A stretch of DNA of 64,000 bases. Source: an uncultured Erythrobacteraceae bacterium. Its GTDB lineage: Bacteria > Pseudomonadota > Alphaproteobacteria > Sphingomonadales > Sphingomonadaceae. The position numbers were made by a program, and so were the translations under genes. The notes under the pieces were generated by a model that worked only from the letters and a program-made list of their open reading frames with translations, ran no database searches and had not been told where the DNA came from. The DNA lies in the NCBI GenBank assembly GCA_963972905.1, contig CAXAXQ010000016.1, forward strand, positions 20,446 to 84,445, given 5' to 3'. Positions 8,435 to 22,311 of the stretch are shown in pieces. The stretch's first letter is position 1. The number at the start of each line of letters is the position of its first letter.

Positions 8435-9700
8435 ATGAACGACCAGACCCTAGACCCCGCAATTCATATCCATGAGCTTGGAAGCAATGCGCGTGCGGCC
8501 GCCAAGGGCCTGCTGACCGCGAGCACCGATGCCAAGAACAACGCCCTGCGCGCTGCCGCCAAGGCATTGCGCGACAATCAGGATGAACTGCTCGAAGCCA
8601 ATGCCGAGGATGTCGAAAGCGTCGCGGGCAAGAAGCCGGAAAGTTTCGTCGACCGGCTGAAGCTTACGCCCGACCGGGTCGAGGGCATGGCATCCGCGCT
8701 CGAACAGATTGCTGAACTGCCCGATCCCGTGGGACGCAAGCTGGCCGAGATCGACCGGCCCAACGGGTTGAAGATCGAACGTGTCGCAGTGCCCATCGGC
8801 GTGATCGGCATGATCTACGAATCGCGGCCCAATGTCGGCGCCGACGCATCGGCACTGTGCCTCAAGTCGGGCAACGCGGTGATCCTGCGCGGCGGCAGCG
8901 AAAGCCGCCATTCGACCCGCGTAATCGTGCGCTGCATGCAGGAAGGCCTCAAGGCCGCCGGCCTGCCAGAACACGCGGTGCAGACTGTGGGTACGACCGA
9001 CCGTGCCGCCGTGGCCGCGCTGCTCAAGGCGGACGAGTTCGTCGACCTTGTCATCCCGCGCGGCGGGCGTGGTCTCGTCGAGCTGGTGCGCGATCAGGCG
9101 AGCGTGCCCACGCTGCTCCACCTCGACGGCAACTGCCACACCTATGTCCATGAAAAGGCTGATCTCGACAAGGCGGCCGAAGTGATCCGCAATGCCAAGC
9201 TGCGCCGGACCGGCGTATGCGGGGCGACCGAGAGCATCGTGGTCGACCGCGCCGTTGCGGAACAGGCCATCCCTAAGATCGCGGCGATCTTCGGCGATGA
9301 TTGCGAGCTGCGCGGCGACGAAACCGCCGTGTCGATCGCGCCCAGCATCAAGCCCGCCACGGACGAAGACTGGGGCACCGAATATCTCGATCCCATCGCG
9401 AGCGTGAAGGTGGTCGATGGCCTCGACGAGGCGATCGACTGGGTCGATACCTATTCGAGCCACCACACCGACGCGATCATCACCGAAGATGACGATGCAG
9501 CGCGCAAGTTCATGACCAGCATCGACAGCGCGATACTGATGCACAATGCCTCCACGCAGTTTGCGGACGGCGGCGAGTTCGGGATGGGCGCGGAGATCGG
9601 TATCGCGACCGGCAAGATGCACGCACGAGGGCCCGTCGGCCTCGAACAGCTGACCAGCTTCAAATATCTCGTCCACGGCAACGGCCAGACGCGGCCGTAA
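8435..9700 (+). CDS. proA: gamma-glutamyl phosphate reductase
   Basis: Internal ATG at 8435 ([22 protein letters not shown]). [12 protein letters not shown] and catalytic-Cys region GVCGATES. The longer ORF from 8174 overlaps proC. Confidence 0.93.
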
Positions 9701-9723
9701 GCTACGCGACCTGAACGAGAAGA

Positions 9724-9758
9724 GCCGCCGATGCCTCCCGAGGCGTCGGCGGCTTTTT
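9724..9758. terminator. bidirectional hairpin terminator between proA and the lipoxygenase gene
   Basis: GCCGCCGATGCCT (9724-9736) pairs with AGGCGTCGGCGGC (9741-9753) around loop CCCG, followed by TTTTT (9754-9758). It lies between convergent stops at 9700 and 9767. Confidence 0.7.
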
Positions 9759-9766
9759 CATGGCCG

Positions 9767-16314: not shown

Positions 16315-17206
16315 ATGACCCGCAAAGCCGACAACCGCGAGCAGCGCCTGCCCGTGCCTGCTGGCGAGCTGCCCGACTTCGTCCCCGTCCCCCGCCACTG
16401 TGACCGCCACGACGGCTGGACCGAAGATCGCCAGCGCCGCTTCATCGCCGCGCTCGCCGATACAGGCAGCGTCCACGCCGCGTGCAAGGCGGTCAACATG
16501 AGCCAGGCGGGCGCCTACCACCTGCGCCGTCAGCCGGGCGCGGAGAGCTTTCGCGCGGCATGGGCTGCGGCGATCGACCTCGGCGTGCAACGCATCGAGG
16601 ACGTTGCGCCTTTCCTGTACGCGCAGCGCACAGGTAGATCTAAATGGGGACCGCGCGCTCAACGGCGTCGACGTGCCCGTCTATTCCTGCGGCAAGCTGA
16701 TCGGCACGCGGACCGCCTATAACGACCGCCTGCTGATGTTCATGCTCCGCAACCGCGCGCCAGAACGATTTGGGGGCTCGCGGTTTGCGGAAGGGCGCCG
16801 CGCCAATGGTCTTGGGGGCCTCAACGCGGTCGGCCAGATGGAGTTGAAGCGGCTCGAGAAACAATGGCGCGAGGAATACGAGCGCGAGCGTGCCCAGGGC
16901 GGCGAGGCCCGCGTGTTCGAAGCGCTCGACGCGAAGCTGAACGCGGCGCGCGACAAGTGGCTAACCGCCCTGAGCCCCCGCGCCCGCGCGGCCTACGACG
17001 CGTTCCGCGCGATCGAGGCCGAGGACAAGGCCGCAGGCTACCGCTGGTGGGATGACCCGGAGCATCCGGGGTATGATGACGGAGAAACCGACGACTGGGA
17101 AGACCGCGCCCTGCCCCCGCCCGGCTGGGAGCACCGTCCACCCGAAGAGGATGAGCCAGAGGAGACATCTCAGTGGCGCGGTTTGAAGGATGAGGGGTGG
17201 GAATGA
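16315..17206 (+). pseudogene. conserved HTH-like hypothetical gene split by a frame change near 16609-16648
   Basis: ORF 16315-16722 (frame 1) and ORF 16604-17206 (frame 2) overlap. The N part ends ..LGVQRIEDVA and the C part resumes DRALNGVDVPVYSCGKLIGTRTAYNDRLLMFMLRNRAPERF. The 40 nt between them (3n+1) break the frame. Confidence 0.5.
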
Positions 17207-17241
17207 TGGGTAGGTGAGAGTCCGAATCTATCTCCAGCGCC

Positions 17242-19047
17242 CTAGGCCTCGAGTAACGTCGAATAGAATGCTGGATCGCTCATCGCGATCCCAATACCTT
17301 TCGCAACGCAGGTTTCGGGTTCATCAGGTAGGTAAACAGGCAGACCAGTTTCCTGTTCGATCAACCTATCAAGTGAACCCAGCCGGGCCCCACCGCCGGT
17401 CAACACAATGCCCTGATCAACCACATCAGCAGCCAATTCCGGGGCTGTACCTTCCAGTGTAATTCGTATCGCCTCGACAATCGACTTCACGACATCCTCA
17501 AAAGCTTCAGCCAAGGACTCCTGAGACATCTCGACTTCCGCCGGAACACCTTGAACGAGATCACGACCGCGAAGACGGAATTTAAGATTCTTGACCGCAA
17601 AATCCGGTGAAGCAACACCGTACTCTCGTTTTATGCGTTCTGCTGTTGCACGCCCAATGTGCAAATTATGGTAGCGACGAACGTAGCTAATTACCTCATC
17701 CGTCATTCGATCCCCACCAGTTCGCACTGAAGTTGAGTAAGCAACGCCGTTAAGCGCAACAATGGCAACTTCTGTCGCCCCGCCTCCGATCGTCGCTACC
17801 ATCGTACCTACAGGATCAATCACCGGCGAGCCCGCTCCTAACGCAGCCATGAGCGGCTGCAGAACAATCGACACACGAGCGGCACCTGCTGCCTTAATGG
17901 CTTTGGCAATAGCCTTACGTTCAGCGGGCGTCGATCCTGCTGGCACACATAACACCACGTCCAAGGGTCGAATCAAATTTGGGCGCTCACCGGTAAGCGC
18001 GATAAAATGCTTCACCATAGCGGAGGCTACATCCAGATCAGCTATCACGCCCTCGCGGATGGGGTACACCACATTTATATTCTCAGGGGTTCTCCCTTCC
18101 ATTGCCAACGCTTCGTCACCAATGGCCACAATCTTGAAGAAACCGGGCTCCTGACGCAAAGCGACAGCCGAGGGTTGCGTCAATATCAAGCCCCTAGAAT
18201 TTGAGAATATTCGAGTATTCGTCGTACCCAAATCAATCGCGAACTCATGAACTAAGCCAAAGCGGCGAGACCTCCTTGTCCCTACGGCGCCCGTGGCAGA
18301 CCCTTCATTGTCTTCTTGGGGCTCAATGGTATCAGAGAATTTCTCAGTTGCGAGATCGACCTGAAGCCCCAATAGGGAGAACGTTTCTCTTACGTCCCTT
18401 CCAAATGCCTCTCTTTTCTCGTTATCTAAAATTAGAAGAGCATCAGCGCTAAATAATACCTTTAACCTCTTTCGAGTTTCGTGTACTATCTCAAAATTCC
18501 GAAGATCACTAGGAAGGTCGACTGGAGCGCCAGAATCCCTTAGGCATCTTGCAATTGCGATGGAGACATATTTTCTTAAAACTGTCTCACTTATCGCATC
18601 TTGCACGTCATCACTTGAAAAACGTGACTCAATTAGTTGGCGAACTTCCGAATAATACGTCGGACAGTTTTCCGAAGACACCGCTACCGCCAGATCTAGA
18701 AAGCTAAGCGGGGCTAGCTTACGGATGTCAGCGTGCTCATCCTCAGATTGGGCAAAAATCTCATGCGGCGTCCCGACAAAGGTAGAGTTATCAGTGATAA
18801 ACACTGATCTCCATTTATCCCCCGATCCAATTTCAATCGGATTCTCAAGATAGGCATGGCACTCCAGCGTCGTGACATCAAAGTCGAAAACGCAAGAATT
18901 AAGATCACCCGAAACTTCGGTCTCGCCAAGGTAAATAGCGTTGCTCAGAAAATTGGAAGAACGGAAAAGTGGGAGGGCTAAGCCAGGCCTCTCGAAAATA
19001 TGACAGCCAAATAGCTCGAATTTCGGAACACCAGTAATCTCCTTCAA
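17242..19047 (-). CDS. fusion protein: unknown ~265-aa N-terminal domain + MreB/actin-fold ATPase
   Basis: 601 aa with a TTG start overlapping the upstream stop. The C-terminal ~335 aa carry IDLGTTNT, IGGGATEVAIVAL, GGDRMTDEVISYVRR..IGRATAERIKREYG and LTGGGARLGSLDRLIEQETGLPV..DEPETCVAKG, the full MreB motif set. Residues 1-262 have no recognisable motif. Confidence 0.85.
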   Translation of the reverse strand: MKEITGVPKFELFGCHIFERPGLALPLFRSSNFLSNAIYLGETEVSGDLNSCVFDFDVTTLECHAYLENPIEIGSGDKWRSVFITDNSTFVGTPHEIFAQSEDEHADIRKLAPLSFLDLAVAVSSENCPTYYSEVRQLIESRFSSDDVQDAISETVLRKYVSIAIARCLRDSGAPVDLPSDLRNFEIVHETRKRLKVLFSADALLILDNEKREAFGRDVRETFSLLGLQVDLATEKFSDTIEPQEDNEGSATGAVGTRRSRRFGLVHEFAIDLGTTNTRIFSNSRGLILTQPSAVALRQEPGFFKIVAIGDEALAMEGRTPENINVVYPIREGVIADLDVASAMVKHFIALTGERPNLIRPLDVVLCVPAGSTPAERKAIAKAIKAAGAARVSIVLQPLMAALGAGSPVIDPVGTMVATIGGGATEVAIVALNGVAYSTSVRTGGDRMTDEVISYVRRYHNLHIGRATAERIKREYGVASPDFAVKNLKFRLRGRDLVQGVPAEVEMSQESLAEAFEDVVKSIVEAIRITLEGTAPELAADVVDQGIVLTGGGARLGSLDRLIEQETGLPVYLPDEPETCVAKGIGIAMSDPAFYSTLLEA

Positions 19048-19877
19048 AGCAAGCCCGCCTTATTATACCAATCTTCGGCGATCCTTTGAATATCCATTTG
19101 ATATTCGTTAGGGGACCGATTGGGCTGCCAGTCATATAACTTCAAATTAGCCCCCGCCCCTATCAATGGATCGACCAAATCCATTACTGGCTTATTACCT
19201 TCAACAAATTGTTTCGGCGCAATTATTAAGTGTAAATTGCCCGATATTTCTACGTTATGAGAAGCAGCCACTTCAATTGTCGAAGCCCTCATGTCATGCT
19301 CATTGCTACCTTCTGACCCGAGGCGCGCAATATCGAGATAACTTACTGCGACGGATTGAAAGGGCTTGATGGCGTCAGACAGCCCATGTCGGGTCCTTCC
19401 GGAATAATAATCCGAGACTTTCCCGAAGGCCCAACTTATAAATGTCAAAATTGATTTATAGTTTGGCTCGAGAGCGTAGTCCTCGAGCGGTACGTAAGGG
19501 TCCGCTTGGCTATCGAAAGAACCGTCTGCCGCACCCCCAGTATCAAAGGGATAAACATGTAATGGATCAGGAACAGCGGTGGACTTGAATACAAACGCTA
19601 CCGGGAATCGTGAAATTTGATGAGAATCTTCATCGCCGATTTTCGTTCGATATGCCGGACGCAAGACGAAGAAATATATTAAATCCTTCTTAAATACCTT
19701 ACACCGCCGTGTTAGTAGCTTACTACTACGGAGTATTTCTTTCGAGTTCCAAGCAGCTGTAACATGAACAAGGGGGAGCTCTCGCACATCCACCTCAGGG
19801 CCTGAAAGCCCAATCAGCTGGCGATCAAAGTTCCTATCCTCACGCCTTCGCAAGCCATGCCCCCCCCCTATCTTCAT
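19044..19877 (-). CDS. hypothetical protein, first gene of the low-GC cassette
   Basis: 277-aa ORF with AT-rich codon usage matching the downstream gene. Its stop TGA (19046-19044) overlaps the TTG start (19047-19045) of the MreB-fusion gene. No family recognised. Confidence 0.7.
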   Translation of the reverse strand: MKIGGGHGLRRREDRNFDRQLIGLSGPEVDVRELPLVHVTAAWNSKEILRSSKLLTRRCKVFKKDLIYFFVLRPAYRTKIGDEDSHQISRFPVAFVFKSTAVPDPLHVYPFDTGGAADGSFDSQADPYVPLEDYALEPNYKSILTFISWAFGKVSDYYSGRTRHGLSDAIKPFQSVAVSYLDIARLGSEGSNEHDMRASTIEVAASHNVEISGNLHLIIAPKQFVEGNKPVMDLVDPLIGAGANLKLYDWQPNRSPNEYQMDIQRIAEDWYNKAGLL

Positions 19878-19930
19878 TTAAGACTAGCGAGAAAATATAA
19901 GAGCTTCAATACGACAGCTTACTAACGCTA

Positions 19931-19991
19931 GTGGCTACTCCTCCCCCATCCGCAGCGTCGCAATGAAAGCCTCCTGCGGAATGCTCACATT
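19931..19991. repeat. diverged duplicate of the lepA 3' end (last 18 codons + stop + 4 nt)
   Basis: 56/61 identical to 20472-20532. On the minus strand it reads [18 protein letters not shown], versus [18 protein letters not shown] in lepA. Confidence 0.9.
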
Positions 19992-20072
19992 CCTCCCCGC
20001 CTACGCGGTGACCGGCCGCCTTGCGGGCGCTCGCGCATCCGCGCCCTCCCCGCAGCGAGCCGCCCCTCCCCC

Positions 20073-20387
20073 CTACCCCTTCTTCCGCTTCTTCCGCGCG
20101 GCGTACTTGGCGTCGCGGGCGGCTTTGAGTTCGGCTTCGGTGGGCTCGGGCACGTTGGCGGCGGCTTGCTTTTCTTCCTTTTCGGCCTTGGCCTGCGCGA
20201 TGGCGGCCTTGCGGGCGGCGCTCTTTTCGGCGGCGGCGGCGTCGCGCTCTTCCTGCTTGGCCTTGCGCCGGGCGACCTCTTCGGGGTCCATCGGCTTCTT
20301 CGCGGCCAGCTTCTTCAGCGCCTTGTCGCGGCGCTCTTGCGCCTGCGCGGCGCGTTCCTCGAACGTGGGTACTTTAAAACCTGCCAT
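20073..20387 (-). CDS. small Lys/Ala/Glu-rich conserved hypothetical protein
   Basis: 104 aa, MAGFKVPTFEERAAQAQERRDKALKKL...ARDAKYAARKKRKKG. GC-rich codon usage like the host. From memory it resembles a small alphaproteobacterial DUF family. Confidence 0.6.
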   Translation of the reverse strand: MAGFKVPTFEERAAQAQERRDKALKKLAAKKPMDPEEVARRKAKQEERDAAAAEKSAARKAAIAQAKAEKEEKQAAANVPEPTEAELKAARDAKYAARKKRKKG

Positions 20388-20471
20388 AGCGGGTGTCTTT
20401 TTCCTTCATTGGGCCGGCGGTGCCGGCATTGGTTGGCGCGAATAAGGGAGTGCGCGGGGTCGGGCAGGCGG

Positions 20472-20532
20472 GTGCCTACTCCTCCCCCATCCGCAGCGCG
20501 GCGATGAAAGCTTCCTGCGGAATGCTCACATT
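20472..20532. repeat. lepA 3' end copy of the 61-bp direct repeat
   Basis: Partner of 19931-19991; contains the authentic lepA stop (20476-20478). Confidence 0.9.
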
Positions 20533-22311
20533 ACCATATTCGCGCATCCGGGCCTTGCCCTTTTTCTGCTTGTCGAGCAGCTTCTTCTTGCGGCTGATGT
20601 CGCCGCCGTAGCATTTGGCGGTCACGTCCTTGCGCAACGCGGCGATGGTCTCGCGCGCGATCACCTTGCCGCCGATCGCGGCCTGGATCGGGATCTTGAA
20701 CAGGTGGCGCGGGATCAGGTCCTTCAAACGCTCGCACATGCCGCGGCCGCGTTCCTCCGCCACGCCCCGGTGGACGATCAGCGATAGGGCATCGACCGGC
20801 TCGTTGTTGACGAGGATGTTCATCTTCACGAGGTCGCCTTCGCGCAGGCCGATCTGCTCGTAATCGAAGGAGGCATAGCCGCGGCTGATGCTCTTCAGGC
20901 GATCGTAGAAGTCGAACACCACCTCGTTCAGCGGCAGCTCGTAGGTCACCTGCGCGCGCCCGCCGACATAGGTCAGGTTGGTCTGGATGCCGCGCCGGTC
21001 CTGACACAGTTTGAGGATCGAGCCGAGATATTCGTCGGGGGTGTAGATCACCGCCTTGATCCACGGTTCCTCGATCACCTCGATCCGGTTGGGGTCGGGA
21101 TAGTCGGCAGGATTGTGCAGCTCGATCACCTTGGCATCCTCGGTCTTCGAATGGCCGAGGTGGATGCGGTAGACGACCGATGGCGCGGTGGTGATCAGGT
21201 CGAGGTCGTATTCGCGGCTGAGCCGCTCCTGAATGATCTCGAGGTGCAGCAGGCCGAGGAACCCGCAGCGAAAGCCGAAGCCCAGCGCGGCGGAGCTTTC
21301 GGTCTCGAAGGTGAAGCTTGCATCGTTGAGGCGCAGACGGGCGATCGATTCGCGCAGCTTGTCGAAATCGGCGGCGTCGACGGGGAACAGCCCGCAGAAC
21401 ACCACCGGCTGCGGCTCGCGATAGCCGGGCAGCGCCTTGGTGGCGCCGTTCTTGACCGTGGTGATGGTGTCGCCGACGCGGGCCTGCTCCACCTCCTTGA
21501 TCTGCGCGGTGATGAAGCCGATCTCGCCCGGGCCGATCTCGGCGAGGTCGATGCGCTTGGGGGTGAAGGCGCCAACGCGGTCGATCAGGTGCTGGGTGCC
21601 GCCCTGCATGAACCTGACGCTGAGGCCCTTCTTGAGGACGCCGTCGATCACGCGCACGAGGATGACGACGCCTAGATACGGGTCGTACCAGGAATCGACG
21701 AGGCTGGCGGTCAGCGGCTGGTCGCGGTCGCCCTTGGGAGGCGGGATGCGCTTGACGATCGCCTCCAGCACATCCTCCACCCCGATGCCCGATTTTGCGG
21801 AGGTGAGCACCGCGCCGCCGGTCTGCCACGTGCCGGTGGCCTGGATGCCGACGATCTCCTCGATCTCCTCCGCCACCCGCTCGGGCTCGGCCGCGGGCAG
21901 GTCGATCTTGTTGATGACGGGCAGGATTTCGTGGTCGTGCTCGATCGACTGATAGACATTGGCGAGGGTCTGCGCCTCCACGCCTTGTGCCGCGTCAACC
22001 ACCAGCAGCGCGCCCTCGCACGCAGCGAGGCTGCGGCTGACTTCGTAGGCGAAGTCGACGTGGCCGGGGGTGTCCATCAGGTTGAGCTGGTAGGTCTCGC
22101 CGTCGCTGGCGGTGTAGTTGAGGCGCACGGTCTGCGCCTTGATGGTGATGCCACGCTCACGCTCGATATCCATGTTGTCGAGCAGCTGTTCGCTCATCTC
22201 GCGCTCGGTCAGGCCGCCGGTGAGCTGGATCAGCCGGTCGGCGAGCGTGGACTTGCCGTGATCGATATGGGCGATGATGCTGAAATTGCGGATTCTTGAA
22301 AGGTCGGTCAT
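20476..22311 (-). CDS. lepA: translation elongation factor 4
   Basis: 611 aa. G1 motif [26 protein letters not shown], and the LepA-specific C-terminal domain. Confidence 0.96.

Follow-up and report, generated by a model that had tools for sequence, protein, structure and literature searches.

Direct repeats of the 3′ end of a gene are a classic signature of site-specific integration. The DNA analysed here (64,000 nucleotides, referred to below as the window) carries such a repeat of the end of lepA next to a two-gene cassette of low GC content, and this raises the question of whether the second copy is an att-like scar left when the cassette was integrated or has a different origin.

The anchor of the locus is lepA itself (20476–22311, minus strand), which encodes a protein of 611 amino acids with the Pfam domains GTP_EFTU, EFG_C and LepA_C and which shares 76–97% amino-acid identity with LepA from the Sphingomonadales. 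The last 18 codons of this gene, together with the stop codon and the 4 nt that follow, form the functional gene end T (20472–20532, minus strand), which we use as the reference copy of the repeat. The orphaned copy T′ (19931–19991, minus strand) is a direct repeat of T, with 56 of 61 positions identical and a start-to-start distance of 541 nt. Within the coding part, three of the differences (GAA>GAG, ATC>ATT and GCC>GCG) are synonymous third-position changes and a fourth, GCG>ACG, replaces Ala by Thr; the fifth mismatch, a single base, lies past the stop codon. The exact matches fall into runs of 20, 8, 2, 0, 23 and 3 nt. The chance expectation of a match of at least 56 of 61 positions anywhere in the window is about 8e-17; the second-best match to the lepA tail in the window reaches 30 of 61, and there is no third copy. 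The first-pass annotation had reported the 61 bp duplicate and its substitution pattern, and our comparison agrees with it exactly. It was also correct in stating that the two copies bracket solely a 480 bp segment, which contains a DUF6481 gene of 104 amino acids (20073–20387, minus strand; PF20089), while the low-GC cassette lies outside the pair. The junction between the copy and the cargo is not an assembly artefact, because L085, which was assembled independently (Logan ERR2752152), matches the window with 100% identity over positions 16972–20127.

About 150 loci were compared in all, and individual related loci are denoted by L-numbers. The fetched sets covered 80 lepA loci of reference genomes and 63 DUF6481 loci of metagenomes, as well as the surroundings of genes homologous to the cargo and to the right flank. 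In the Sphingomonadales, a converging homologue of the window gene at 16315–17206 is found 0.04–5.6 kb behind lepA, and in some loci a DUF6481 gene directly follows lepA. L042 (190 nt), L152 (39 nt behind the DUF6481 gene) and L150 have an empty interval between the two flanks. In approximately 35 loci the interval is occupied by 2.5–5.3 kb of low-GC DNA, as islets of one to four genes, and these loci together encode about 80 different cargo protein clusters in which anti-phage functions predominate. The cargo types include HNH_2/EcoRII-N, EcoRII with Dcm, Schlafen/AlbA_2, reverse transcriptases, a dCMP-deaminase/kinase fusion, Z1 with a methylase, NERD, Hachiman HamA with a helicase, a D12 methylase with ParB_N, OLD-like AAA_15/TOPRIM, KAP NTPase, dGTPase, HerA, MazG_C/HMUDK/Nmad2, ABC-3C components, zeta toxin and HD-CE. 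The region is a hotspot bounded by lepA, with or without the DUF6481 gene, and by the converging gene on the right, with conserved flanks, diverse low-GC defence cargo and empty sites. The earlier view of the lepA 3′ end as a hotspot at which small modules pile up is upheld by these loci, for example by the array in L155 described below.

Two further features of the hotspot were noted. At least nine islets that otherwise differ (L012, L016, L006, L098, L101, L102, L103, L107 and L154) have in common a protein of about 300 amino acids with an HNH_2 domain and an N-domain resembling EcoRII-N; it often adjoins the right flank, and its partners vary (KAP NTPase, dGTPase, HerA, DUF3644 and AAA_15). 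In L097 (10001–10306), L120, L121 and L146 the DUF6481 gene is found beyond the right-flank gene, so that during evolution this gene has shifted with respect to the hotspot.

The right-flank gene (16315–17206, plus strand), which converges on the islet, resembles a terminase small subunit. Its homologues match PHROG 4044, 'terminase small subunit', with E values from 1e-20 to 5e-24; the family is confined to the Sphingomonadales and has no Pfam domain. In about 35 loci the variable region ends on the right at the TerS-like gene, with identities of about 63% (amino acid) and 70% (nucleotide), and its homologues elsewhere (in L091 and others) are single ORFs of 225–256 amino acids. In the window copy a frameshift near 16604–16722, just after the residues QRIEDVA, splits the gene into two overlapping ORFs; this could indicate a pseudogene or an error in the metagenome assembly. 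An AF2 model of the protein (pLDDT 79) displays an HTH motif and a helical fold. Comparison of this model with the PDB gave no significant structural match and no recombinase fold, and the best target-normalised TM-scores, 0.48–0.49, were to the Sf6 small terminase. The PHROG match, the HTH/helical model and the lack of any recombinase-like structure lead us to reject the idea of a novel recombinase in the right flank.

Copies of the lepA tail, located with blastn-short, are found at the left edge of about 30 islets and are always on the same strand as lepA. Among 50 Sphingomonadales reference genomes they occur in L016, L023, L034, L040, L044 and L048; they are also present in the window, in its conspecifics L002 and L003, in L086 and L155, and in 19 of the 27 DUF6481 loci from metagenomes. 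The 29 loci from other alphaproteobacteria had no such copy. Every complete copy extends to the natural lepA stop codon, with the cargo starting directly behind it, and in no locus is there a copy beyond the cargo. The interval between lepA and the orphan tail never contains low-GC cargo. It consists of a 60–84 nt UTR in L040 and L086, the DUF6481 gene in the window, L002, L016, L023 and a marine clade, a ParE-type toxin–antitoxin pair in L044, two ordinary genes in L034, and a small ORF with ccdAB in L155. Two tandem copies are present in each of L099 and L102.

In the window, T′ is preceded by a spacer of 49 nt (s; 19992–20040, minus strand), a two-hairpin element similar to a lepA 3′UTR. 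The spacer is homologous to the sequence behind the lepA stop codon in L086 and L091, and its first 25–30 nt or so are also found behind the lepA stop codon in L006 and L009. An alignment of the relatives indicates a compensatory change in hairpin 2. The combined unit s+T′, with the shared start AATGTGAGC, can be aligned in the window, L086, L091, L099 and L092; its identity to the window is 84–86% in L086, L091 and L099 and weaker, 74%, in L092, and the content downstream of it differs among the five loci. Since s is single-copy in the window, and is found only at this locus in the loci fetched, it is not a dispersed repeat of the REP or MITE type. From these alignments, T′ and s are best regarded as an inherited module, homologous to modules of relatives that carry other cargo. 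L091 matches the sequence after the DUF6481 gene of the window as far as position 20025, inside s, and then continues with ordinary genes; the arrival of this cassette in the genome was therefore not the event that made T′. The same conclusion is reached from the presence of s+T′ in L091, L092 and L099, all of which lack the cassette; the first-pass annotation had named just such a finding as a refutation, and the proposal that T′ is the scar of this cassette's integration is accordingly not supported. Between the window and L086 the identity is 84% for s+T′ and 82% for lepA, but only about 65% for the cargo DNA, so that constraint, homogenisation or independent replacement of the cargo has to be invoked.

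Two relatives are particularly informative. L091 is the closest, and its lepA is 93–95% identical to that of the window outside the last 130 nt or so; this terminal stretch (9630–9760) is 81–83% identical to the window and is nearer to other lineages. The order in L091 is a foreign lepA tail, s, a window-type tail and then the native DUF6481 gene. In this mosaic a new lepA end has been installed, with recombination breakpoints inside lepA, and the old end has been displaced. In L155 (13418–16845; lepA on the minus strand) the order is lepA, an ORF of 146 amino acids, a first tail copy, ccdA/ccdB, a second tail copy, HD-CE cargo and the TerS-like gene. The first copy is 192 nt in length and 99.5% identical to the resident tail, while the second, of 129 nt, is 95.3% identical and has a 1 nt deletion. 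Both copies are derived from the resident tail, and they are older with increasing distance from lepA. We note that the gene caller had labelled both of them as small LepA_C proteins.

We consider it probable that T′ is an orphaned lepA 3′ end, displaced as a by-product of integrase-free recombination at a hotspot for defence islets. Ordinary recombination is the apparent route of islet swapping because no integrase has been found, as detailed below. Homologous recombination in the conserved flanks would be the usual means by which Sphingomonadales swap islets, and it would leave no scar, which explains the many occupied sites that have no copy of the tail. Occasionally, incoming DNA anchored by homology in lepA would deliver a fresh lepA tail together with extra DNA, such as a 3′UTR patch, a DUF6481 gene, a toxin–antitoxin pair or a small ORF. 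The far end of this DNA would join inside or just after the resident tail, so that lepA remains intact and the old tail, with the cargo or other DNA that follows it, is pushed downstream. Once formed, a tail copy (in the window with its hairpin spacer) would be inherited and spread by ordinary recombination, and could itself act as the left-hand homology during cargo swaps. The hotspot, the orphan tails with their geometry, the lack of recombinases among the ORFs searched, the mosaic tail of L091 and the decay gradient of L155 are observed; we infer the mechanism, which would be homology-facilitated illegitimate recombination and/or double crossovers through a copy of the tail, as well as the sequence of events in the window.

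Displacement of this kind has precedents. Type VI secretion system (T6SS) effector ends undergo sequential displacement, and C-terminal displacement in rhs genes takes place through homology-facilitated illegitimate recombination (PMC5361080); the 3′-end displacement is attributed to a homologous anchor, located in the conserved 5′ part of the gene, and an illegitimate join at the far end (PMC5361080). The rhs, CDI and T6SS arrays (Jackson 2009; Kirchberger 2017, PMC5361080) share with the present locus an intact gene followed by orphan 3′ ends in the same orientation, with no integrase. In the window and about 30 related loci these are downstream lepA 3′ fragments that run to the natural stop. 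The arrays also have the newest module beside the gene and the older ones pushed downstream, which is the geometry seen in L155, where the more decayed copy lies further from lepA, and in L091, where a foreign gene-end patch is followed by the displaced end and then by native downstream DNA. At lepA, in contrast to those systems, the displaced ends are those of a conserved GTPase with a housekeeping role and contain no variable toxin domain, and the payload is whatever trails the tail (defence islets, toxin–antitoxin pairs or DUF6481). Displacement at lepA is thus a by-product of recombination and not its selected product.

The locus is also comparable with the core-gene defence hotspots described previously (Johnson 2023, PMC10250203; Oliveira 2017, PMC5635113), which have fixed core flanks, diverse low-GC defence cargo and no recognisable mobility genes, and for which exchange by homologous recombination in the flanks has been inferred. 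More generally, hotspots that bear no marks of mobile elements recombine at their flanking core genes (PMC5635113; PMC10250203). In contrast to those hotspots, the islets of the Sphingomonadales described here are very small (one to four genes), carry visible scars at their left edge in the form of orphan lepA tails, and have a TerS-like gene as the right flank. The known phenomena are 3′-end displacement and defence hotspots free of mobile genetic elements, and the case of the lepA tails is a variant of these.

A possible but distinctly less probable reading, likewise integrase-free, is that T′ is the lepA tail of a donor, brought in on one segment with the cargo and the TerS-like gene. This segment would have crossed over homologously in the TerS-like gene and been joined illegitimately downstream of the DUF6481 gene of the recipient; the cargo would then be younger than the DUF6481 gene. 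In most relatives the tail copy is indeed nearer to the lepA tails of other genomes than to the resident tail. For these relatives this finding leads us to reject a recent in-place duplication of the resident tail, which could still apply to L155 and L044, and it supports the earlier suggestion that the fragment evolved inside functional lepA genes, as does the foreign patch in L091. Close strains, the flanks of which are more than 92–98% identical, differ in the copy allele and in the cargo together, and the identity between them breaks exactly at the DUF6481 stop. L002 and L003, for example, are 98% identical to the window through the DUF6481 gene; in L002 the identity ends 3 nt past the DUF6481 stop codon, and what follows in both is a different lepA fragment (about 98 nt can be aligned, starting at about −117) and then Dcm-like cargo. 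The copy in L002 retains about 30 nt of lepA 3′UTR of the L086 type past its stop, and the window and L086 have both the cassette family and s+T′ in common. These observations favour arrival with the cargo. However, the L155 copies are close to the resident tail and their decay increases away from lepA, the copy in L091 precedes native and not foreign sequence, and the TerS-like gene, at the identities given above, would be a poorer anchor than lepA. The T′ of the window matches the resident tail (53 of 57 positions) and a foreign tail (52 of 57) equally well, so that it may be either the displaced old end, in which case the DUF6481 gene is the later arrival, or the tail of a donor that accompanied the cargo.

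We regard as unlikely the att-scar model, in which elements with a tyrosine or serine recombinase, or integrase-less cis-mobilisable elements served in trans, enter the lepA 3′ end and provide a replacement tail, and in which the islets accrete in tandem and the integrase and the distal repeats are lost later. The 3′-end direct repeats match the expected signature, the final 30 nt or so are common to all of the complete copies and could hold a core site, and the tandem arrays have their newest unit beside lepA. Islands that integrate into gene 3′ ends, including integrase-less cis-mobilisable elements, resemble the lepA locus in having a 3′-end repeat, a target gene that stays intact and units arrayed in tandem. 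The tail copies have their left ends at no fewer than eight positions (−220, about −190, −130, −117, −57, −48, −38 and about −30), which speaks against a single crossover core with constant repeat boundaries, but the end at about −188/−190 (G|TGATCGC) recurs in three lineages that differ in the genes inserted: L155 (at about 14509), L044 (about 11021) and the marine clade (for example L099, about 378). Such a recurrence is not expected of random illegitimate joins; it may point to either a hot spot or site-specific action, and it counts against displacement as the best explanation.

The other evidence does not favour an integrase. The first-pass annotation had called for a search for recombinases that target lepA; ours comprised Pfam analysis of 60 islet ORFs and a home-made motif prefilter applied to the locus sequences. 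No integrase, transposase or resolvase was identified in the 60 islet ORFs, and the prefilter of 4292 ORFs from all of the loci returned 20 candidates, of which six were checked by Pfam and none was a recombinase. Among the ORFs searched, therefore, no integrase was present in or near any of the approximately 150 loci. The repeats at lepA differ from those of integrase islands in that their boundaries vary and the cargo lies outside them; in no locus does a pair of copies enclose low-GC cargo, and a distal copy occurs in none. The DNA between the copies may be just the short UTR of L040 and L086 or conserved genes, and in many genomes the DUF6481 gene lies behind lepA with no repeat at all (it adjoins lepA with no orphan tail between them in L005, L010, L015 and L152). 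A search for the lepA tail in IMG/VR viral contigs, using an exact degenerate pattern, gave no match, nor was there a match among PLSDB plasmids or GenBank phages, so that no attP-bearing element was found. A literature search for lepA as an integration target returned nothing relevant. The tandem accretion of islets that had been proposed thus stands, on the evidence of the L155 array, but the att-like scar and the loss of an integrase and distal repeat that were proposed with it do not. A site-specific step by a recombinase that acts in trans from elsewhere in the genome is kept as a minority possibility.

A further and doubtful proposal is that the locus is a mobilisation platform that needs no integrase, built from the tail copies and the TerS-like flank, with a pac-type packaging start and RecA homology arms. 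If so, phage or gene-transfer-agent particles would preferentially carry the adjacent islet, starting from the TerS-like gene; any Sphingomonadales recipient could use the orphan tail, renewed with every swap, and the TerS-like gene as universal arms for installing the islet, and the recurring −188 boundary would mark a defined site of processing or recombination. The recurrence of this end, the conservation of s+T′ and the constant TerS-like border keep alive both packaging-linked mobilisation, again a minority possibility, and a site-specific step in trans. Our literature search found no paper that joined the terms 'gene transfer agent', 'small terminase' and 'Sphingomonadales'.

It is very improbable that the copy and its hairpin spacer are retained for a function of their own, as a portable left homology arm (a landing pad) in islet exchange or as a terminator, insulator or leader of the cargo, since the conservation of s+T′ at the level of a core gene (84–86%) where the cargo differs or is about 65% identical, the compensatory change in the spacer hairpin and the GGAGG that the L016 copy supplies just upstream of a cargo gene have to be set against the stops, frameshifts, truncations and widely differing lengths of many copies, the many occupied hotspots with no copy (including L006, L007, L015, L043, L095, L097 and L154), the lack of an Rfam match in 19700–20700 and the lack of any predicted promoter or terminator inside s+T′.

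Defence islets often sit in hotspots that show no trace of the route by which the islets arrived. At lepA, by contrast, recombination has left readable scars, in the form of orphan tails of a housekeeping gene that in places make up ordered arrays, and the order and mode of insertion can therefore be reconstructed without any integrase. The turnover of defence hotspots that are free of mobile genetic elements thereby becomes directly testable in the Sphingomonadales. The locus flanked by lepA and the TerS-like gene is also a place to mine new defence systems, among them the MreB-fusion cassette of the window.

This cassette (17242–19930, minus strand) consists of two genes, and across approximately 17240–19930 the GC content drops from about 0.65–0.70 to 0.44–0.54. 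Gene 1 (19044–19853, minus strand) encodes 269 amino acids from a TTG start, or 277 amino acids from an ATG at 19877; it has 119 homologues, every one of which is hypothetical, and searches of Pfam, PADLOC and PHROG gave no match to a known family. Gene 2 (17242–19047, minus strand) encodes 601 amino acids, with an N-domain that has no assigned family, followed by an MreB/actin-like ATPase domain (residues 268–591; Pfam MreB_Mbl, E = 7e-108), and gave no match in PADLOC. A homologous gene pair lies directly behind lepA and the s+T′ module in L086 (9878–12570), with amino-acid identities of 67% and 46%, which links the cassette family to lepA ends. The expected tie between cassette homologues and lepA ends therefore applies to L086, where the copy is of the same kind, but not to L087–L090 (10001–13578), in which a homologue of gene 1 is found within an unrelated defence island (Dcm/HATPase/Z1/DUF4420/AIPR). 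In that island the gene 1 homologue is followed by a protein of 913 amino acids, and the N-domain of gene 2 (residues 9–185) is homologous to the N-domain of this protein (31% identity, E = 2e-18). The N-domain in the window is fused to the MreB/actin-like ATPase domain. The two genes appear to make up a candidate anti-phage system, modular in build and as yet undescribed. We also note a run of nine G residues at 19861–19869 (minus strand), a few bases ahead of the TTG codon at 19853 where gene 1 probably starts; L086 has only G5 at the matching place, and the run is a candidate slipped-strand switch that could turn gene 1 on and off.
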